A stretch of DNA of 64,000 nucleotides from Bacillota bacterium (GCA_016874655.1 VGTO01000001.1:2777-66776); one strand, 5' to 3'; positions 10,485 to 36,076 are shown, counted from the first letter of the stretch. Program-made: numbers and translations. Notes: generated from the letters alone by a model not told the origin.

Positions 10485-13400
10485 ATGAAGTACAAAGCAC
10501 CTCGCGGCACCCGCGACATTTTACCGGAAGAAGCAGTAAAATGGCAATACATCGAAGCAAAATACAGGGAGCTATGCTCTTTATACGGCTTTGGAGAGAT
10601 CAGGACACCCATTTTTGAGCAGACTGAACTTTTTGCCCGTAGCGTAGGGGAAGACAGCGATATTGTATCGAAAGAGATGTATTCATTTAAAGATCGTAGC
10701 GGACGTGATCTTACCTTGCGTCCCGAGTTGACTGCTTCCGTGGCCAGGGCGTACCTGGAGCATCATTTAAATGAGAAGCAGCAGCCGGTTAAGCTCTACT
10801 ACAGCGGGCCGATGTTTCGTTACGACCGGCCTCAGGCCGGGCGTTACCGCCAATTTCACCAGTTTGGTTTGGAGATATTTGGCGCTGAACATGCGGCAGC
10901 TGACTGTGAGATCATTTCTTTTTGCTACAATTTCTTTAAAATCCTTGACTTAAAAGATTTAAGCATAGAACTGAACAGTGTGGGTTGCCCGGTTTGCCGT
11001 CCGGCTTACCTTGATTTGCTGGTTCCCTACCTGGAGAAATTGGAGCACAATCTCTGCGCTGATTGCCGCAGGCGCTATAAAACCAACCCCTTAAGAGTTC
11101 TGGATTGCAAAGAGGAAAGCTGCCAGGCAAGGGTGGCCGATGCTCCCAAAATGGGTGCTAACCTCTGCGCCGGTTGTGCTGAACATTTTGTTACACTGAA
11201 AACGCTTTTAAAACGGCTTGATATAGCTTTTAATTTAAATGACCGTTTGGTCCGCGGACTCGATTACTATACCCGGACCGCTTTCGAAATCACCACCGGC
11301 TCTCTGGGAGCTCAGGCTTCAGTCTGTGGTGGTGGCCGTTACGACCACCTGGTGGAGCACCTTGGTGGGCCACCGACCCCGGGAGTTGGTGTTGCTTTTG
11401 GAAAAGAGCGCATTCTGTTAAACATAGACTGGGAAAAAGAGCTTTACAGCATAGGAAGTAAAGTTTTCGTGGCCACAGCGGGCAGCGGTCTTGAGGGTGA
11501 AGCCTTACTATTAGCGCAGGAACTGCGTCAGCGGAAGATCGCCGCCGAAGCAGATCTTTTAGAGCGCAGTCTGAAGGCTCAGATGAAGTATGCCGGAAAG
11601 CTTGACTATGACACTGTAGTGATCATTGGAGAGCAGGAGATTGCAGCTGGACGAATTGCCCTGCGTGACATGGCCAGTGGAGAACAACTTGAAATTCTTC
11701 GGACCGAGTTGATTTCGAAGCTGGCGGGTCAGGCACCAACAAGGGGTTCTGCCGACAGAGGCGCTTATGCCCCTGAGGTGCGACTGCCACGCATTGATGA
11801 AGCAACTCTTAAAACACATCATTGCGGCTCACTGACAACTGATCAGATTAACCTTAGAGTTAAATTGGCCGGTTGGGTAGGCCGCCGCCGCGACCATGGC
11901 GGGCTGATCTTCATCGACCTGCGCGACCGGAGTGGTTTAATGCAGCTCGTATTCGATCAGCAAAACGGAGAGGAGCTGTTTGCTCTAGCTGAAAGTTTGC
12001 GCTCTGAGTATGTAGTAGCCATAGAAGGGGATCTGGTCCGCCGTTCCGATGAGAATATCAACCCTTCCCTGCCAACCGGGGAGATCGAAGTTCACGTGAC
12101 TAAAATGGAGATTCTAAACCGCTCCAAAACCCCGCCATTTTATATTGAAGATGATTTAAACGTAGATGAAAACCTGCGTCTGCGTTATCGCTATCTTGAT
12201 TTAAGACGCCCGGAGATGTTCAATCGTCTAAAACTGCGGCACAAAGCAGTCAAACTGGTCCGGGATTACATGGACAGCTATGATTTTCTGGAAGTAGAAA
12301 CGCCGATGTTAACCCGCAGCACACCCGAAGGAGCGCGGGATTTTCTGGTCCCCAGTCGTGTACGCCCCGGCTCTTTTTATGCACTGCCTCAATCACCCCA
12401 GCTATTTAAACAGCTGTTGATGGTTAGTGGGGTAGAGCGTTATTTTCAGATCGTGCGCTGCTTCCGTGACGAAGATTTAAGGGCAGATCGACAGCCGGAA
12501 TTTACCCAGATTGATATTGAAACCTCCTTTTTTGGCAGTGAAAACCTCTTTGCTCTAATAGAGGGGTTGATGGCCCTGCTCTGGAAAGAGATTCACGGTA
12601 TTGAGCTCAGACTGCCATTCTTAAGAATGCCCTACCGGGAAGCGATGAACCGTTTCGGATCAGACAAACCGGACCTGCGTTTTGCCATGGAGCTGGTTTC
12701 TATTGATCATCTTGCTGCAAAAAGCGATTTTAAAGTTTTTAAGAGCGCTTTGGAAGTTGGTGGGGCCGTGAAGGGTTTGCGAGTACCCGGCGGTGGCAGC
12801 ATGAGCCGTAAAGATTTAGATGACCTGACTCTGCTGGCTCGCCAGCTGGGAGCTAAGGGCCTGGCCTGGACCTTTGTCGAAGACGAAGGCTGGCGTTCGC
12901 CAATTGCCAAGTTCTTTAGTGCTGAGTTGATTGCTGATATTACTGAAGAGATGGAAGCCTTGCCTGGAGACGTCCTGCTATTTGTAGCCGATCGCTGGGC
13001 AACATGCTGCCAGGTTCTGGGGGCTTTGCGCCGCCACCTGGCCCCGCAGGAGATGGCAAAAGAACCCCATTTTATGTGGGTTGTCGATTTTCCACTCTTA
13101 CATTATGACGAAGAGGAGCAGCGATTTGATTCCGATCATCACCCTTTTACAGCGCCGCGTGTTGAAGACCTTGAACTGCTGGAGAGCGATCCACTGGCTG
13201 TTCGTGCCCAAGCTTATGACCTGGTTCTTGATGGGGTGGAAATAGGTGGCGGCAGTACCAGGATTCACGATCGGGAAACCCAGGGTAAGATCTTCAAACT
13301 ACTCGGTCTTTCTACTGAAGAGAGCTTTGATAAATTTGGTTTTCTACTGGAAGCGCTGTCTTACGGTGCACCACCCCATGGAGGGCTGGCTCTTGGTTTG

Positions 13401-13577
13401 GACCGGTTGATTGCGCTCCTGGTGGGGGATGATTCGATCAGGCAGGTTATTCCCTTCCCGAAAACCGCTGCTGCAGCGTGCCTGATGACCGGCGCTCCGG
13501 CCCTGGTAGACGAAAAGCAGCTTGATGAGTTGAAGATTATGCTAACCGGCGATGAAGGTGAAGAAGACGAAGAGTAA
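10485..13577 (+). CDS. hisS-aspS: histidyl-tRNA synthetase fused in-frame to aspartyl-tRNA synthetase (single 1030-aa ORF, no stop between the two enzymes)
   Basis: Residues 1-~418 are a complete class II HisS (MKYKAPRGTRDILPEE...ELISKLAGQ). A ~25-aa linker (APTRGSADRGAYAPEVRLPRIDEATL) is followed by a complete AspS (KTHHCGSL...GWVGRRRDHGGLIFIDLRDRSG...). I translated 11700..11880 by hand and found no stop codon. Confidence 0.8.
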   Translation: MKYKAPRGTRDILPEEAVKWQYIEAKYRELCSLYGFGEIRTPIFEQTELFARSVGEDSDIVSKEMYSFKDRSGRDLTLRPELTASVARAYLEHHLNEKQQPVKLYYSGPMFRYDRPQAGRYRQFHQFGLEIFGAEHAAADCEIISFCYNFFKILDLKDLSIELNSVGCPVCRPAYLDLLVPYLEKLEHNLCADCRRRYKTNPLRVLDCKEESCQARVADAPKMGANLCAGCAEHFVTLKTLLKRLDIAFNLNDRLVRGLDYYTRTAFEITTGSLGAQASVCGGGRYDHLVEHLGGPPTPGVGVAFGKERILLNIDWEKELYSIGSKVFVATAGSGLEGEALLLAQELRQRKIAAEADLLERSLKAQMKYAGKLDYDTVVIIGEQEIAAGRIALRDMASGEQLEILRTELISKLAGQAPTRGSADRGAYAPEVRLPRIDEATLKTHHCGSLTTDQINLRVKLAGWVGRRRDHGGLIFIDLRDRSGLMQLVFDQQNGEELFALAESLRSEYVVAIEGDLVRRSDENINPSLPTGEIEVHVTKMEILNRSKTPPFYIEDDLNVDENLRLRYRYLDLRRPEMFNRLKLRHKAVKLVRDYMDSYDFLEVETPMLTRSTPEGARDFLVPSRVRPGSFYALPQSPQLFKQLLMVSGVERYFQIVRCFRDEDLRADRQPEFTQIDIETSFFGSENLFALIEGLMALLWKEIHGIELRLPFLRMPYREAMNRFGSDKPDLRFAMELVSIDHLAAKSDFKVFKSALEVGGAVKGLRVPGGGSMSRKDLDDLTLLARQLGAKGLAWTFVEDEGWRSPIAKFFSAELIADITEEMEALPGDVLLFVADRWATCCQVLGALRRHLAPQEMAKEPHFMWVVDFPLLHYDEEEQRFDSDHHPFTAPRVEDLELLESDPLAVRAQAYDLVLDGVEIGGGSTRIHDRETQGKIFKLLGLSTEESFDKFGFLLEALSYGAPPHGGLALGLDRLIALLVGDDSIRQVIPFPKTAAAACLMTGAPALVDEKQLDELKIMLTGDEGEEDEE

Positions 13578-29233: not shown

Positions 29234-29322
29234 GCTAATATTAGTCTATTCACTCTAATCAGGCGGCTTTCTTCTAACAGGAGGGGGCTGCCTTTTTTAT
29301 CGAAAAAAAATAACATTTGTCT

Positions 29323-29350
29323 TTACACACAAGATGTTGTGTTCTATAAT
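29323..29350 (+). promoter_or_regulatory. putative sigma-A promoter of nrdR-nrdD-nrdG (-35 TTACAC, 16-nt spacer, -10 TATAAT)
   Basis: Hexamers at 29323-29328 and 29345-29350 read directly from the sequence. Confidence 0.5.
29327..29342 (+). promoter_or_regulatory. NrdR box 1 (16-bp palindrome ACACAAGATGTTGTGT) lying in the promoter spacer
   Basis: ACACAA/TTGTGT arms are perfect reverse complements; fits the NrdR-box consensus acaCwAtATaTwGtgt. Confidence 0.55.
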
Positions 29351-29385: not shown

Positions 29386-29883
29386 GTGAAATGCCCATTC
29401 TGCGGTGAAGCCGAAACCCGGGTTCTTGATTCAAGAGCTACTCAGGATGCTACCACCATCAGACGCAGGCGCCAATGCACCGCCTGTGCCAATCGTTTTA
29501 CTACCATGGAAAAAATGGAAGAAGAGCCGCTGGTGGTTATCAAGCGGAATGGTCGCCGGGAACTGTTCGATTCGGCAAAAATTCTTAAAGGGCTGCTCTT
29601 AGCCGGGCAAAAACGCGACATTCCACTTTCTGTCTGGGAAGAGGTTGTTGAAAACTTAGAACAGGAGCTACGCAGTAACTATATGCGGGAGGTCACCACT
29701 GATCGCATCGGAGACGTCATTCTGGCCCGGCTACGTGAAATTGACGAAGTTGCTTACGTCAGGTTTGCCTCTGTATTCAGGCAGTTTCCTGACGTTGAAA
29801 CATTTAATGCCGAACTGGAAACAATGCTCACAGAAAAGAAGAAACTTACCCGGCCTTTGGCCGAGCGTGGTTTGCCTGAATAG
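29386..29883 (+). CDS. nrdR: transcriptional repressor NrdR
   Basis: ORF track 29368..29883 trimmed to GTG at 29386 (VKCPFCGEAETRVLDSR... zinc ribbon + ATP-cone); AGGAGGG RBS 6 nt upstream. Confidence 0.9.
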   Translation: MKCPFCGEAETRVLDSRATQDATTIRRRRQCTACANRFTTMEKMEEEPLVVIKRNGRRELFDSAKILKGLLLAGQKRDIPLSVWEEVVENLEQELRSNYMREVTTDRIGDVILARLREIDEVAYVRFASVFRQFPDVETFNAELETMLTEKKKLTRPLAERGLPE

Positions 29884-29918: not shown

Positions 29919-32900
29919 TTGAAAAACGACATAACTGCAACTGAAACCGTAAAGGGGCAGCTGACCGGCATTTCATTTAAAGAGATCCGCAAACGCGACG
30001 GTCGGGTGGTGCCTTTTGATGCTGTAAAGATCACTGAAGCGATCTTTAAAGCAGCTACCGCAGTAGGTGGTAGCGATCGCGGCATTGCCGAAAACCTGAC
30101 GAATCAGGTGATAAAAAGCCTGCAACAGAAGGCTCACAACGCCATTATTCCCAGCGTCGAAGAGGTTCAGGACGAAGTGGAAGTGACGCTGATTGAAAAC
30201 GGACATGCCCGTACTGCTAAAGCCTATATTCTTTACCGTGATCGCCGGACACGCATCCGTGATGGCAAATCGGAACTGATGGATGTGGTAAAAGACATCC
30301 TGGTTGAAACCAGCCGGGAAAATGCCAACATCAGCAATTCCCCCTCGGCCAAAATGCTGCAGATTGCTTCGGCGGCCAGTAAGCAGTATTACTTAAGTAA
30401 TTTAATACCGGAAGAATATGCCCAGGCTCATGAGGATGGAGCGATGCATATTCATGATCTAGATTATTACAGTAAAACCTTAAACTGCCTGCAGATCGAC
30501 CTGACCAAACTGCTACAGCAAGGTTTTAATACCGGTTACGGTTACATCCGCCCCCCGAAACGGATCGGGTCAGCCGCTGCCCAGGCCGCTATCATTCTGC
30601 AAAGCAACCAGAACGATATGTTCGGTGGGCAAAGCTTCCCCCATTTTGACCGCAGCATAGGCGAGGTAATCCGCAGCTTTAAAACCACCCCCGGCTATGA
30701 AGAAATCTACCAGGCTATGGAAGGATTGATTTATAATCTAAATACCATGCATTCTTTGAGTGGTTACGAACGGATTTGGGTTTATGATAAGATAACCGAA
30801 GAACTTTTTGCAATTACAATGGCTGATTTTGATCATAAGTTTGAATCCGATAGATATCAAGCATTAAGCATCAATTATTCTACCGGTAAAACTGAACTTA
30901 AAGATATTACGGCTTCTTTTAAGCATAAGAATGCAAACAAACTTTACACAGTGAAACTCCAGTCGGGACAAAAGGTGACTGTTACCGATAACCATTCTCT
31001 GATGACTCTCGATGAATCGGGAAGCATTACTACTGCACCGCCTGCCTGGCTGAAAAGGGCGCTTGTTCCTCGGGAGCTACATTTAGAAAGAAAAGATATA
31101 ACTTTTGATTTAAGCACCTATCCCAGTTCCAGGAAATACCAGTTTGATAAACTTGAACTAACTCCCATCCTGGCAAAATTAATGGGTTATTACTTAGCTG
31201 AAGGGACTGCGGATGGATCAACTCTTCTGTTAGCTCTTTTTGATCGAAAGCTTGAAAGCGATGTTGAAACTATACTTAAGCAGATTCATCCTGATTTTAC
31301 AGTCAGGCTGCGCACTAGGGAAGGGAAACCCCGTGACATCGCCTGTAATGTCGGGCGGCAGTTCACAACTTTTATGGCTGATAAGTGTGGTCGGGGTGCA
31401 GTCAATAAGAAGGTTCCATCAGAGATGTTCTTTGCAACTTCTTCAGTGATTAGAGCTTTTCTAGACGGTTATCTTTCAGGAGATGCAACAGTAGGTTCAA
31501 ATCGCATCGTAGCGGGGACAGTTTCTCCTTCATTAAGAGAAGGGCTTCAGTTGCTCTTTTATAAAATGGGGATTCCTGTTTCTATTAGAGAAGAGATGCC
31601 GCAAACTCAGTTTGCGACTGCCAATGAGAAATGCATGATCTCAGCGGGTGGTTATTACTGCGATAAGCTTTCATTAAGCTCAGATAAAGCAGATAAACTC
31701 ATCAGTTTATCTGCCGTTGAAACTGAGCAGACCGCCTATGATTATGAATTTCTTAGGCCTTCGATTAAAGAAGTGTATGGTATAAAATGTAAAAATACTT
31801 ATAATTATCGCTTAAGGCCTCAATATTTAGATGAACTAGTAGAAGACCTTGCTAAAAGGATCCTTTCGGAACATGAATTGACCACTCTTAGTGAGTTGTC
31901 AACTGAAAACTTTTGGTTTAACCGGCTAGAAGAGATTTTGCCTGCGATCAAGACATCTGAAAGGTTTCAACTTATCAGAAAACTGAAAGCGAAAGCGCTG
32001 CCGCGATTTTGCTCTTATTTGCCAACATACTTTGCTTACAAGGATATACTTAAAAGGTTTTATCTTCCAGAGACTGTTAAAGAAACAACTGGCAGCAGGA
32101 TTTCTAATAAATGTAAAAGCCCTCAATTGATTATTTGTTGGGCGAAGATGATTTTGAAGCAAAACGTAAAAATGATCGAATTAATGGACACAATTAAACG
32201 TGCCAGACGTTTGTGGCCGATTAGAATTAGGGAACTGGCTGAAGAAAATTTTGAACCATATGTGTTTGATATTTCTGTTGCAGATAACGATAATTTCCTA
32301 ACTGCATCAGGCATTTTTGTTCATAACTCAAGGGCGGGTGCTCAGGTTCCTTTCAGTTCACTAAACTTTGGCACCGAGACAACAGAAGAGGGGCGCATGG
32401 TCAGCAAGGCGGTGCTGGAGGCTTTCCGCCGCGGCCTGGGACGGGGCGAGACGCCGATCTTTCCCAATCTCGTTTTCCGGATCAAGAAAGGCGTCAACTT
32501 TAATCCCGGTGATCCCAACTATGATCTTTATCGTCTGGCCCTCCAGGTAGCCGCCCGCCGGATGAACCCGACATTTAGCTTTATGGATAGCAGCTTTAAC
32601 AAGGACTACGGTGACGAGGTTTCTTACATGGGATGCCGGACACGGGTTATTGCCAACCGTCATGGCGCAGCGGTTTCAGCCGGCAGAGGCAATATCGCCC
32701 CGGTTACCCTCAACCTACCGCGCATTGCCCTTGAGAGTAAAGGTCAGCAGGAGTTATTTTTTGTTCAGCTGGATCGGGTATTACGTATTGCTACCCACCA
32801 GCTGTTGCACCGTTTTGAGGTGCTGGCCAGGCTCCAGGCCCGAGATCTTCCTTTCCTGATGGGACAAAAGCTATATCTCGGCTCTGATGAAATCGGCCCT

Positions 32901-33590
32901 GATGATACTATACGCGAGGTGATCAAGCACGGCACTTTGGCTATTGGTTTTATCGGTCTGGCCGAAACTTTGCAGATGCTGATTGGTAAACATCATGGCG
33001 AAGATCAGGAGGCCTTGAAGCTGGGGTTGCAAATCATTGAGCACATGCGGCGACGGACCGACAGCTACGCTGAAGAATACGATTTAAACATTGTGCTGGT
33101 GGCCACGCCCGCCGAAGGTTTAGCCGGAAGGTTTGTGAAGATTGACCGGGAACGTTTCGGCACAATCCCGGGGGTAACGGATAAAGATTACTACAGCAAC
33201 TCTTTCCACATCCCGGTTTATTACGCAACGTCGATGTTTGAAAAAATTGCAAGCGAGGGGCAGTTCCACCATCTCTGCAATGCCGGGCATATCAGCTATA
33301 CAGAGCTTGAAGCGCCGCCGGCCAACAATATTGATGCCGTCGACAGTATTGTCCGCAAAATGGCTGCTTCCGATTTTGGCTACGGCGGGATCAACTTTCC
33401 AATTGATGAATGCCGCAACTGCTCGCACAACGGGGTTTTCAGCGGGGATTGTCCGGAATGCGGAAGCCCGAATATCAGGAGGATCCGCAGGATAACTGGC
33501 TATCTTTCTACCGATGAACGTTTTAACGAAGCCAAATTCAGTGAGCTCAAAGATCGCCGGGTCCATTACAAACCCGATAATCGCCGGTGA
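29919..33590 (+). CDS. nrdD: anaerobic ribonucleoside-triphosphate reductase NrdD (class III) interrupted by a 525-aa intein; mature enzyme ~698 aa
   Basis: N-terminal ATP-cone; the conserved class III motif NLNTMH|SRAGAQVPFSSLNFG is split by the insertion; C-terminal Zn-ribbon (CRNCSHNG...CPECGSP) and glycyl-radical motif (RRITGYL); TTG start with GGAGGGG RBS. Confidence 0.9.
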   Translation: MKNDITATETVKGQLTGISFKEIRKRDGRVVPFDAVKITEAIFKAATAVGGSDRGIAENLTNQVIKSLQQKAHNAIIPSVEEVQDEVEVTLIENGHARTAKAYILYRDRRTRIRDGKSELMDVVKDILVETSRENANISNSPSAKMLQIASAASKQYYLSNLIPEEYAQAHEDGAMHIHDLDYYSKTLNCLQIDLTKLLQQGFNTGYGYIRPPKRIGSAAAQAAIILQSNQNDMFGGQSFPHFDRSIGEVIRSFKTTPGYEEIYQAMEGLIYNLNTMHSLSGYERIWVYDKITEELFAITMADFDHKFESDRYQALSINYSTGKTELKDITASFKHKNANKLYTVKLQSGQKVTVTDNHSLMTLDESGSITTAPPAWLKRALVPRELHLERKDITFDLSTYPSSRKYQFDKLELTPILAKLMGYYLAEGTADGSTLLLALFDRKLESDVETILKQIHPDFTVRLRTREGKPRDIACNVGRQFTTFMADKCGRGAVNKKVPSEMFFATSSVIRAFLDGYLSGDATVGSNRIVAGTVSPSLREGLQLLFYKMGIPVSIREEMPQTQFATANEKCMISAGGYYCDKLSLSSDKADKLISLSAVETEQTAYDYEFLRPSIKEVYGIKCKNTYNYRLRPQYLDELVEDLAKRILSEHELTTLSELSTENFWFNRLEEILPAIKTSERFQLIRKLKAKALPRFCSYLPTYFAYKDILKRFYLPETVKETTGSRISNKCKSPQLIICWAKMILKQNVKMIELMDTIKRARRLWPIRIRELAEENFEPYVFDISVADNDNFLTASGIFVHNSRAGAQVPFSSLNFGTETTEEGRMVSKAVLEAFRRGLGRGETPIFPNLVFRIKKGVNFNPGDPNYDLYRLALQVAARRMNPTFSFMDSSFNKDYGDEVSYMGCRTRVIANRHGAAVSAGRGNIAPVTLNLPRIALESKGQQELFFVQLDRVLRIATHQLLHRFEVLARLQARDLPFLMGQKLYLGSDEIGPDDTIREVIKHGTLAIGFIGLAETLQMLIGKHHGEDQEALKLGLQIIEHMRRRTDSYAEEYDLNIVLVATPAEGLAGRFVKIDRERFGTIPGVTDKDYYSNSFHIPVYYATSMFEKIASEGQFHHLCNAGHISYTELEAPPANNIDAVDSIVRKMAASDFGYGGINFPIDECRNCSHNGVFSGDCPECGSPNIRRIRRITGYLSTDERFNEAKFSELKDRRVHYKPDNRR
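30753..32327 (+). mobile_element. intein with LAGLIDADG homing endonuclease domain inserted in nrdD (Ser1 ... His-Asn | Ser+1)
   Basis: Boundaries come from hand translation: ...NLNTMH-[SLSGYERIW...ASGIFVHN]-SRAGAQ... Block A SLSGYERIWVYD, block B VTVTDNHSLMT (TxxH), two LAGLIDADG motifs (LAKLMGYYLAEGTADG; IRAFLDGYLSGDATVGS), block F VFDISVADNDNFLTASG, block G IFVHN/S. The intein DNA is markedly AT-rich compared with the flanking nrdD sequence. Confidence 0.85.
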
Positions 33591-34102
33591 TGCTACAGCT
33601 GGCCGGATTTAAAGAAGAGAGTATTGTTGACGGACCGGGGATCAGGGCTACTGTCTATTTTCAGGGTTGCCCGCACCATTGCCCGGGCTGTCACAACCCT
33701 GAAACACACGATCCGCAGGGCGGCTTAAGGATTCCTTTAGAAGAGCTGGTGGGAATGATCAACAAAAACCACGGTATTACCGGGGTAACTTTTTCCGGTG
33801 GAGAGCCCTTTCTACAGGCTTCGGCCGCCGCGGTGCTTGCCAGCCAGGTAAGTTCACTCGGTTTAAACCTGGTTGTTTACAGCGGTTATACATATGAAAA
33901 GCTGCGAGCTGCAGGCCAATTGGATTCATCAATCAGGCAGCTGCTCGAAGCAGCCTGGCTGCTGATTGACGGACCTTACCTGAAGAACAAACAGGATCTA
34001 AACCTTCCTTACCGGGGTTCACGCAATCAGCGCATCATTGACCTCAAAAAGACCCTGAGCGAGGGTATCGTGACTAAGTGGGCAGGTTCCGGCGATGGGT
34101 AG
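33587..34102 (+). CDS. nrdG: anaerobic ribonucleotide reductase activating protein NrdG (radical SAM)
   Basis: 171 aa; CPHHCPGCHNPETH (CxxxCxxC cluster motif); overlaps the nrdD stop by 4 nt. Confidence 0.85.
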   Translation: MMLQLAGFKEESIVDGPGIRATVYFQGCPHHCPGCHNPETHDPQGGLRIPLEELVGMINKNHGITGVTFSGGEPFLQASAAAVLASQVSSLGLNLVVYSGYTYEKLRAAGQLDSSIRQLLEAAWLLIDGPYLKNKQDLNLPYRGSRNQRIIDLKKTLSEGIVTKWAGSGDG

Positions 34103-34937
34103 GGGCAATAAATCTTTTTCGCTGATTAAATGCGGCAGCCAGGCTTACCTGCAGTCTGATCTATTTAAAGCAAGTGGCCTTGTAGAACATGCCTTCTCAA
34201 CCCGTTCTGGCGGTTGCAGCAGCGGTAATCTGGCATCACTTAACATGGCCTTCCATACGGAGGACAGCGTCGATAATGTTCTCGAGAACAGGCGCCGCTT
34301 TTTTAACCTTTTTAAGGCCGATTACCGGCAGATTGTCTCAGCGATCCAGGTGCATGGCACGGAGATTGCTGTTTTTGACAAAAACCACAAAGGTGAGGGA
34401 GCACTGCCCCACAGCGCAACAAGAAGCTGCGACGCTTTAGTTACCACTGAGCCGGGTTTGATCCTCTCCGCCTATGCCGCAGATTGTCAGCTCCTTTATT
34501 TCTGCGCACTGGACAGGCCACTTGTAGCGCTTGCGCATGCCGGAAAACAGGGAGCGTTAGGCCGTATTGGACCACAGGTGGTAAACTATCTCCAGGAACA
34601 ATTCCAGGTAAAACCGGACCGTTTGTTGGTTGCGATGAGTCCTGCGGTTTGTTGGTGCTGTTATCAGGTAGGTAGCGGGGACGCTGCTGCATTCCGGCTG
34701 GCAGGCTGGAATGGGCAGCCCTACCTGGAACCTGCAGCGGAAGACAAATTTAATCTTGATCTTGTAGCGATTAACTTAGATCAGCTACTGACGGCCGGTG
34801 TCAATCATGATAATATTGCCATAAGTGAATTATGCACTTCCTGTAACCCCGATCTATTCTACTCTTACCGGCGTGATCGAGGTATAACAGGAAGAATGAT
34901 CGGTTTTATAGTCCTGAAAAGCGAAGTTACGGGGTAG
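34095..34937 (+). CDS. pgeF: peptidoglycan editing factor PgeF / YlmD (DUF152, laccase-domain protein)
   Basis: 280 aa; YfiH/YlmD family features; conserved position downstream of ftsZ in Firmicutes. Confidence 0.75.
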   Translation: MGRGNKSFSLIKCGSQAYLQSDLFKASGLVEHAFSTRSGGCSSGNLASLNMAFHTEDSVDNVLENRRRFFNLFKADYRQIVSAIQVHGTEIAVFDKNHKGEGALPHSATRSCDALVTTEPGLILSAYAADCQLLYFCALDRPLVALAHAGKQGALGRIGPQVVNYLQEQFQVKPDRLLVAMSPAVCWCCYQVGSGDAAAFRLAGWNGQPYLEPAAEDKFNLDLVAINLDQLLTAGVNHDNIAISELCTSCNPDLFYSYRRDRGITGRMIGFIVLKSEVTG

Positions 34938-34942
34938 GGGCA

Positions 34943-36076
34943 ATGGAAAATAAGCGTCTGAGAAAGGCGAAACAGCGTTTTGAAGTACTGCCCGGAGAAG
35001 GCAAGCGCTTTAGCTTCAGAAACATCAGGCAGGCGGCGGTTTTTTACATCCTGTTACTGCTGGCGTTGGTCATTTTGGTACAGCTTGGCTATCACTGGCT
35101 CGGAGAGCAGTTCCAATCCTGGCGTCTGGGGGTTATTGAAGCTGAACCGGGTCAGATGCTGCAGCAGGCTGAAATAAGGGGGATCGTCACCCGCGATGAA
35201 AAGGTAATCGCATCACCTGTCGATGGCTTTATTCTTCAACTCGCAGCTGTCGGAGAACGCGTTCCCGTCGGCTTCGAACTGGCCAGAATCGGCCAGCTAA
35301 CCACAGCGGAAATGCAAATGCTGCTCGATTCCGCAGAGCCCGGCCCGGGTAAAGAGCTGTGGGTTAGGATTCAGCAATACTGGCAAGAAGTTTTCCCGGA
35401 TGCGGGGCCAGAATTAGCGGAATCAGGAGAAAGTGGACCCTTATTTACAACCTTTATCACTATCGATAGCCCGGAAGCAGGTTTTGTCTCCTATTACCTC
35501 GATTCCTGGGAGGACCACACCCAACCTTACTATTTCAACGAAACAGAATCAGATCTGCAGATTCCAACTGGCACCTATACGATGGAAGGTGACCTTGTAC
35601 AGCGTGGACAGCCGATTTTAAAAATAGTTGATAACTGGCAGTGGTATTTTAGCGCCGTTGTTCCATTCCATCCTGGCCGGATGATCGCTGTTTTGCCACA
35701 AGTGGAGTTAGCTTTTGAGTTTGCCCCGGAAGAACCGGTGCAGGCCACATTAATTAGCCATGAGATTGACGAAACAGCACAAGAGGTACGTCTCACTTAT
35801 CAAATCAACAGGCAGTTACCGGGTTTTGACCTGGTGCGTCTGACTAGTGCTACTTTGCTCTACGAGCAGAAGAGCGGTATAATTGTGCCTGAAGCAGCTG
35901 TTTTTAAAAAAGAGAATCTTACCGGCGTGTATCTGAACCAGAGCGGTCGGGTGATATTTGTCGAGATAACTGTTGTAGAAAAGCAGGATGATCAAGTGAT
36001 GGTTGAAGGCCTGCAACCCGGTAGCCTGATTATAACCCGCCCCGATCTGGTTACCGAAGGTCAACGCCTGAACTGA
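34943..36076 (+). CDS. HlyD-family-like membrane protein (N-terminal cytoplasmic tail, one TM, biotin-lipoyl-like and beta-barrel domains)
   Basis: 377 aa; TM segment AAVFYILLLLALVILVQLGYHWL; C-terminus ...GVYLNQSGRVIFVEITVVEKQDDQVMVEGLQPGSLIITRPDLVTEGQRL resembles the C-terminal barrel of membrane-fusion/HlyD proteins. The call is weak. Confidence 0.45.
   Translation: MENKRLRKAKQRFEVLPGEGKRFSFRNIRQAAVFYILLLLALVILVQLGYHWLGEQFQSWRLGVIEAEPGQMLQQAEIRGIVTRDEKVIASPVDGFILQLAAVGERVPVGFELARIGQLTTAEMQMLLDSAEPGPGKELWVRIQQYWQEVFPDAGPELAESGESGPLFTTFITIDSPEAGFVSYYLDSWEDHTQPYYFNETESDLQIPTGTYTMEGDLVQRGQPILKIVDNWQWYFSAVVPFHPGRMIAVLPQVELAFEFAPEEPVQATLISHEIDETAQEVRLTYQINRQLPGFDLVRLTSATLLYEQKSGIIVPEAAVFKKENLTGVYLNQSGRVIFVEITVVEKQDDQVMVEGLQPGSLIITRPDLVTEGQRLN

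Follow-up and report, generated by a model that had tools for sequence, protein, structure and literature searches.

Inteins and homing endonucleases have repeatedly targeted the gene of the class III (anaerobic) ribonucleotide reductase (RNR), nrdD. Inteins in nrdD have been described in Clostridium phage c-st and others (PMC3653736), and Intein_splicing insertions in the nrdD of Jug phage (PMC12880540); the D-1873 intein, the remnants in Lactococcus phage 949 and the mobile group I intron of T4 are further elements of this gene (PMC3653736, PMC1865063, PMC12880540), and RNRdb holds about 80 curated RNR inteins (PMC2795772). Here we analysed an intein in the nrdD gene of an uncultured Bacillota bacterium, located in a DNA stretch of 64,000 nt (GCA_016874655.1, VGTO01000001.1:2777-66776) that we call the window. 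The nrdD inteins listed above sit in phage genes, whereas the family of the window intein is chromosomal, and we consider it distinct from them because searches of phage records and of IMG/VR gave no copy. A literature search found no paper on an intein family in specificity loop 2 of NrdD or on this site.

The inteins closest in predicted fold reside in other host proteins. PI-TkoII (PI-PkoII), intein-2 of the Thermococcus kodakarensis DNA polymerase (2cw7/2cw8), is archaeal and 14–22% identical to the window intein; about 217 residues superpose, and a helical domain of the window intein (residues 325–490) is without counterpart in the alignment. TliVMA, PhoVMA and PI-SceI (VMA1) are hosted by V-ATPases and PI-PfuI (Pyrococcus furiosus, 1dq3) by an archaeal B12-type RNR, at other sites; they mostly have Cys1, and none has the 170-aa helical module.

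The nrdD precursor, its intein and the insertion site

The product of the nrdD open reading frame (ORF; Table 1), whose TTG start has the sequence GGAGGGG 7 bases upstream, matched the NCBIfam model PRK07111 (NF005497) with 994 bits (cut-off 764), the match being split around an insert. In Pfam, NRDD (PF13597) was matched in two pieces (2.2e-186), together with ATP-cone, Intein_splicing and LAGLIDADG_3. The host showed every feature by which an NrdD is recognized, namely a profile score above the curated cut-off, the ATP-cone, the loop with the thiyl-radical Cys (MGCRTRV), the Zn-ribbon cysteines, the glycyl-radical motif (RRITGYL) and an adjacent NrdG; the Cys, the Zn-ribbon and the glycyl-radical motif all lie in the C-extein. 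By direct reading of the DNA, the codon of His278 ends at 30752 and Ser1 is TCT (30753-30755), while the AAC of the terminal Asn ends at 32327 and Ser+1 is TCA (32328-32330). The original prediction, made from the sequence alone, of a 1223-aa ORF with a 525-aa insert at 30753-32327 was confirmed by the ORF and these codons, and the motifs that it quoted were all in place (SLSGYERIW, residues 1-9; VTVTDNHS, 75-82; LAKLMGYYLAEGTADG, IRAFLDGYLSGDATVG and VFDISVADNDNFLTASGIFVHN). The same 1223-aa protein, 100% identical, was predicted on 7 metagenome contigs that keep the gene order ftsA-ftsZ-nrdR-nrdD-nrdG, and the ORF is therefore not an assembly artefact.

When the insert alone was compared with Pfam, it scored 61.1 bits with Intein_splicing (cut-off 35.8) and 41.2 bits with LAGLIDADG_3 (cut-off 22.5), which is far beyond chance. 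The NCBIfam models TIGR01445 (intein_Nterm, 31 bits, cut-off 24.5) and TIGR01443 (intein_Cterm, 26 bits, cut-off 15.6) also recognized it, in line with the earlier proposal that intein and LAGLIDADG hidden Markov models (HMMs) would do so. Class 1 inteins require Cys or Ser at position 1 and Cys, Ser or Thr at +1, and the roles of the other residues of the pathway have been described (PMC7765530). The window intein has the complete class 1 set, comprising Ser1, T78-x-x-H81, D506, H524-N525 and Ser+1; S1, T78, H81, D506, H524 and N525 are invariant columns of the family alignment (A2), and the C-terminal Hint segment has a mean pairwise identity of 83% within the family. An AlphaFold model from the single sequence was unusable (mean predicted local distance difference test score, pLDDT, of 38), and we used the model obtained from an 11-row alignment (pLDDT 74). 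A Foldseek search of the PDB with this model gave PI-TkoII (8e-17), followed by the TliVMA intein, PI-PfuI, PI-SceI, I-Tsp061I and I-DmoI. The Hint domain was thus recognized by profile and by predicted fold, and for the endonuclease the profile match was joined by a duplicated alpha-beta-beta-alpha-beta-beta-alpha fold, in which LAKLMGYYLAE150G and FLDGYLSGD244 end the predicted helices 138-150 and 230-244 at their C-termini with both acidic residues intact. Taken together, profiles and predicted fold indicate that the insert is a bona fide class 1 intein, within which a monomeric LAGLIDADG endonuclease with two motifs is nested.

The base composition of the intein also departs from its surroundings. 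Its GC content is 39.2%, and 33.9% at third codon positions (GC3), compared with 48.4% (GC3 53.2%) for the N-extein, 52.5% (GC3 58.6%) for the C-extein, 0.509 for both exteins joined and 49.1% for the window outside the intein; between 30780 and 30960 it falls to 0.315. Over all 1575-nt windows of the 64 kb the mean GC was 0.488 with a standard deviation (sd) of 0.019; the minimum, 0.389, is located on the intein, and values of 0.40 or less were limited to 1575-nt windows starting at 30626-30826. The AT content of the intein thus exceeds that of the average window by about 5 sd, and the AT-richness noted earlier is borne out (39.2% versus 49-51%).

To locate the insertion in the host protein, we aligned the spliced 698-aa product with NrdD references. 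Residues 1-278 joined to 804-1223, the alignment that had been suggested as a check, are collinear through the junction with the NrdD of Prevotella copri (8p23, 1e-160), Streptococcus thermophilus and T4, with zero gap at the junction against the P. copri enzyme (...YNLNTMHSRAGAQVPFSSLNFG... against ...HNMNTIHSRGGNQVVFSSINYG...), where NTMH-SRAG matches NTIH-SRGG. The chain index of 8p23 equals the number used in the P. copri paper plus 4, the aligned residues being Cys 420 (Cys416 in the paper), Arg 309 (Arg305) and Gln 313 (Gln309); MGCRTRV of the C-extein aligned to Cys416 and RRITGYL to the Gly711 region. In P. copri numbering the junction is His303|Ser304, which corresponds to His278|Ser279 in the mature protein here. 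Loop 2 comprises residues 304-311 of P. copri NrdD; it relays the specificity signal from the effector site, which lies where the two subunits of the dimer meet, to the active site, and its Gln309 touches the substrate (PMC11226230). The alignment thus places the intein exactly at the N-terminal edge of loop 2, with Ser+1 as the first loop residue. A site at the radical residues was considered and rejected in favour of loop 2 after the numbering offset of 4 had been corrected. The earlier description of the insert as splitting the catalytic core is acceptable in that the junction lies inside the barrel core beside the substrate, but it is not at the residues of the radical chemistry, the thiyl cysteine being about 100 residues further downstream, and specificity loop 2 is the accurate site. 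The central reading of the original prediction, a full-size LAGLIDADG intein whose in-frame insertion interrupts a conserved motif of NrdD, is supported by the HMMs, the continuity of the exteins and the GC contrast.

These data make it very probable that the element is an intein of the canonical class 1 type that contains a homing endonuclease and would be spliced from NrdD at loop 2. The precursor would be translated as a single 1223-aa chain in which Ser1 undergoes an N-O acyl shift assisted by T78 and H81, Ser+1 attacks the resulting ester, and Asn525 cyclizes with the assistance of H524 and D506; an O-N shift would then restore the peptide bond and yield an NrdD of 698 aa whose NLNTMH-SRAGAQVPFSS loop is intact. 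The unspliced precursor presumably has neither a functional substrate site nor a functional specificity site, and because loop 2 and the barrel cannot form around 525 residues, splicing would precede assembly of the active, NrdG-activatable enzyme. The freed intein would cut intein-free nrdD alleles at the fused site and spread by repair-mediated homing.

Relatives of the intein and their helical domain

A scan of one genome per GTDB species identified 16 loci, in 16 Bacillota species, that encode an intein homologue with 37-63% identity. Most carriers are metagenome-assembled genomes (MAGs), of Syntrophomonadaceae, Dethiobacter, Peptococcia, Desulfotomaculum, Tindallia, Syntrophothermus, Clostridia and Veillonellaceae; Syntrophaceticus schinkii Sp3 (NZ_CDRZ01000010.1) is a cultured one. 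The N-terminal junction NLN[TS]MH|SL... was present and the frame open in 16/16 loci, and the C-terminal junction ...FVHN|SRAG was found in all 15 loci that reach it, the contig of L020 ending inside block F. Ser1 was found in 16/16 loci and Ser+1 is likewise invariant. A distant metagenomic fragment (P0004) has Cys1 instead of Ser1. The public-genome alleles resemble the window intein in site, Ser1, the four-part architecture with the helical domain and the nrdR gene directly 5', and differ from it in sequence (37-63% identity), in the absence of the endonuclease (L019 and L020) or in the loss of the catalytic acidic residue (L008, L010 and L021). Word-indexed protein searches gave 5 matches for the intein, 10 for the alignment of its family and 1 for that of the helical domain; as the genome scan gave 16 species, we draw no claim of rarity from them. 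The original prediction had regarded three features as out of the ordinary: the Ser1 nucleophile, a homing-endonuclease intein in an anaerobe's class III RNR and the autoregulated operon context. None of these held, since Ser1 is a canonical class 1 nucleophile and is invariant in the 16 genomic homologues, such inteins occur in at least 16 other species and in earlier reports, and nrdR lies directly 5' of nrdD in 16/16 related loci; being shared by the 16 relatives, these features are ordinary and family-wide. The window intein thus belongs to a populous and apparently undescribed NrdD loop-2 family in anaerobic Bacillota.

A Hint domain and a LAGLIDADG domain together need about 330-450 residues, and the 525-aa length of the window intein is accounted for by an extra conserved helical domain (residues ~325-490) that was absent from the original prediction. 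Its conservation extends to all 16 members, 14 alignment columns being invariant and 19 nearly so, and its ratio of non-synonymous to synonymous substitution rates (dN/dS) in close pairs was 0.06-0.18, indicating purifying selection. In the model, residues 360-480 have a pLDDT of about 90 and form a helix bundle whose last helix, of 30 residues, runs into block F. A Pfam search with the helical domain gave no match in any family member, and neither did a PDB sequence search. When 1.84 billion cluster representatives were searched exhaustively with HMMER, there were 2 true matches only, P0011 and P0012, both of them NrdD inteins; that of P0011 is at the same NrdD site as the window intein. P0012, a divergent NrdD of 1500 aa, carries two inteins, the first a 213-aa mini-intein directly before the conserved Cys following the HxHD motif (...RPY|S...SHN|CGGHS). 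The second, of 574 aa and with Ser1, belongs to the present family, and its junction (...NQLAGARG|SQVVF) lies in loop 2, 4 residues downstream of that in the window by a three-sequence alignment. A separate protein, P0005, is an 826-aa radical-SAM protein named pyruvate formate-lyase activating enzyme, with a 452-aa Cys1 LAGLIDADG intein without the helical domain; its endonuclease region is the closest relative outside NrdD (35% identity over 25% of the query).

L019 and L020, which have lost the endonuclease, keep the helical domain with every invariant residue, and a relative-rate comparison found no acceleration of the L019 domain relative to L011. These two loci, whose inteins are 98% identical, differ at 11 codons only (5 synonymous and 6 non-synonymous differences), too few to inform on selection after the deletion. 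The helical domain is most likely an accessory module of the family, which may serve the endonuclease in DNA-target recognition or may be a structural brace on which the Hint fold of the family has come to depend; the evidence does not separate the two. Other large intein endonucleases, PI-PfuI and PI-TkoII, contain extra DNA-binding domains. It is unlikely, in our estimate, that the domain is a new family-restricted module whose job is not homing, being needed for Hint folding or splicing or else gating splicing and with it the timing of maturation of the oxygen-sensitive NrdD; a non-homing job of this kind would explain its survival in the endonuclease-deleted lineage.

Homing, decay and alternative explanations

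To evaluate whether the family still homes, we compared the inteins with their exteins and target sites. In the 48-bp fused target the first and second codon positions are conserved family-wide (consensus aTaTAtAAcCT.AATAC.ATGCAc^TCcCG.GCgGG.GC.CAgGT.CC.). Pairwise identities of inteins and exteins were weakly correlated (Spearman 0.34), and in L011 and L019 it is the exteins, but not the inteins, that diverge most from the rest. The endonuclease domain gave a dN/dS of 0.10-0.18 in close pairs, which argues that the endonuclease is useful now or was so recently. The GC contrast of the window intein, the variation of this contrast between lineages and the intact E150 and D244 likewise speak, indirectly, for mobility.

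Several observations weigh against recent transfer or against homing in every member. The closest homologue is only 63% identical, and the same locus (L006) also has the closest extein (81%). By tblastn, 50,697 phage records contained nothing closer to the intein than weak matches at the LAGLIDADG level, all in unrelated genes, and IMG/VR, when scanned for the intein, gave no copy; a phage or viral origin was considered and dropped on these results. With identities of 63% at most, no near-identical copy in distant hosts and none in viruses, these searches do not demonstrate recent transfer. L010 (AGGS), L008 (SGH) and L021 have lost the catalytic acidic residue, and with the whole endonuclease missing from other members homing is evidently not maintained everywhere. 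The GC content of the intein is below that of the extein in most lineages, so that low GC could partly be intrinsic composition rather than a sign of recent arrival. For the helical domain, no homology supports any role, and that the endonuclease-less variant has kept it agrees with a role in splicing or structure no less than with DNA binding.

Much of this, together with a synteny that is identical everywhere, would also be expected of a genuine splicing intein whose endonuclease no longer homes, inherited vertically, kept only because an essential loop rarely loses an insert precisely, and low in GC for intrinsic reasons. We regard this as possible but doubtful. A nuclease without use would not be expected to show the purifying selection seen on the endonuclease, the window intein retains both acidic residues, and intein and extein similarities are poorly correlated, the inteins of L011 and L019 being closer to the others than their exteins are. 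The gap in GC3 between intein and extein also differs by lineage: L007 and L009 have almost none, and it is large in L015, in L016 and in the window (about 0.2 here).

The family includes what appear to be the decay stages usual for homing elements. A 335-aa derivative of the intein is found at L019:6001-7005 and L020:4584-5537, in two closely related MAGs; a clean deletion has removed the whole LAGLIDADG domain (residues ~110-302) and spared both Hint segments, and the nrdD ORF, of 1042 aa, is open. Among other records, P0002 runs out of frame past the second LAGLIDADG motif and looks frameshifted, and P0007 and P0014 are two pieces of one intein on one ENA contig that look frameshifted as well.

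A role as a conditional switch on NrdD maturation, with the helical domain sensing nucleotides, DNA or a redox or metal signal and gating splicing, is in our judgement very unlikely. The conservation, purifying selection and confident modelling of this domain are consistent with such a role, as are its unaccelerated survival in L019 and the insertion in an allosteric loop of an enzyme regulated at several levels. However, Pfam, PDB sequence and fold searches revealed no ligand-binding or sensor homology, the 98% identity of L019 and L020 means that the deletion may be recent, the extra domains of PI-PfuI and PI-TkoII are DNA-binding ones, and the Ser1/Ser+1 chemistry offers no cysteine for redox control. 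Bacterial intein-like (BIL) domains are Hint domains of variable, often secreted proteins, usually without the pair of Asn and +1 nucleophile and without an endonuclease. The nrdD insert does not show these properties, and a BIL domain or non-splicing domain fusion kept in the mature protein is hardly credible and was rejected, as the insert interrupts a continuous, highly conserved barrel loop, Asn525, Ser+1 and all class 1 catalytic residues are invariant over 16 species, the ORF is intact in all copies and the host is a conserved essential enzyme rather than a variable surface protein.

Operon context and significance

Table 1. Positions of the intein, its host gene and the surrounding operon in the window
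Feature	Position	Strand	Description
Terminator-like hairpin after ftsZ	29261-29293		Marks the operon off from ftsZ
Promoter-like site TTTACA-17-TATAAT	29322..29350	+	Strong, sigma-70-like, 11/12 matches; upstream of nrdR
NrdR-box palindrome	29327-29342		ACACAAGATGTTGTGT; 16 bp, perfect; in promoter spacer
nrdR	29386..29883	+	165 aa by gene callers; Zn-ribbon and ATP-cone repressor, first gene; Pfam Zn_ribbon_NrdR 7.9e-19, ATP-cone 2.2e-18
nrdD precursor	29919..33590	+	1223 aa; TTG start
N-extein	29919..30752	+	278 aa; ATP-cone residues 22-111, NxN flap region, HIHD motif, C-terminal end ...IYNLNTMH
Intein	30753..32327	+	525 aa, Ser1 to Asn525
N-terminal Hint segment	30753..31076	+	Residues 1-108; block A SLSGYERIW, block B T78-x-x-H81; beta-strands in model
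LAGLIDADG endonuclease domain	31077..31667	+	Double-motif; residues ~109-305
LAGLIDADG motif 1	~31164-31205	+	LAKLMGYYLAEG; acidic residue E150
LAGLIDADG motif 2	~31446-31487	+	IRAFLDGYLSGD; acidic residue D244
Helical domain, family-specific	31725..32222	+	Residues ~325-490, between endonuclease and block F
C-terminal Hint segment	32223..32327	+	Residues 491-525; block F VFDISV (D506), block G FVHN (H524, N525)
C-extein	32328..33590	+	420 aa; first residue Ser+1 of loop 2 (SRAGAQVPFSS)
Peptide joining the exteins in spliced NrdD			...NLNTMHSRAGAQVPF...
Fused target site (putative)			About ATTTATAATCTAAATACCATGCAT^TCAAGGGCGGGTGCTCAGGTTCCT
nrdG	33587..34102	+	Radical-SAM activase of NrdD; Pfam Fer4_12 7.1e-34 and Radical_SAM; start overlaps nrdD stop

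The NrdR box upstream of nrdR is the sole zero-mismatch match to ACACWANATNTWGTGT in the window, and autoregulation of nrdR-nrdD-nrdG is plausible from this arrangement. A second box-like sequence, about 31 bp downstream, is much weaker (5 mismatches by eye). By tblastn, nrdG was found 3' of nrdD in 13/16 related loci, with no nrdG match in L013, L018 and L020, all of them short contigs. On the 3' side of the nrd unit, a Cu-oxidase_4 (YfiH/polyphenol-oxidase-like) gene (34095-34937, +) and an HlyD-like gene (34943-36076, +) mark its boundary; the pair is ordinary and has the same order on an independent metagenome contig.

Elsewhere in the window, a single 1030-aa ORF (10485-13577, +) encodes a complete HisRS and a complete AspRS, an apparent hisS-aspS gene fusion. 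The HisRS part contains tRNA-synt_His (8-308) and HGTP_anticodon (326-414), the AspRS part OB (459-544), tRNA-synt_2 (561-994) and GAD, and an in-frame linker of about 45 aa joins the two (...AGQAPTRGSADRGAYAPEVRLPRIDE...). As the identical 1030-aa product was found on at least 8 contigs from several samples, the fusion does not stem from misassembly.

These results leave the general picture of inteins and of RNR as it was, and the helical domain is a small remaining question. Annotations should list the 1223-aa 'NrdD' as a precursor that carries a loop-2 intein, and the family deserves its own name or model, there being no intein-containing NrdD model among the NCBIfam matches to the window protein. 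The family adds a well-populated, chromosomal, all-serine (Ser1/Ser+1) intein group that occupies one site of the class III RNR, and the all-serine intein, which has an intact endonuclease and a natural mini-variant, may serve as a cysteine-free splicing tool. Its natural variants, full, catalytically dead and endonuclease-deleted, together show the stages of the homing cycle of one element.

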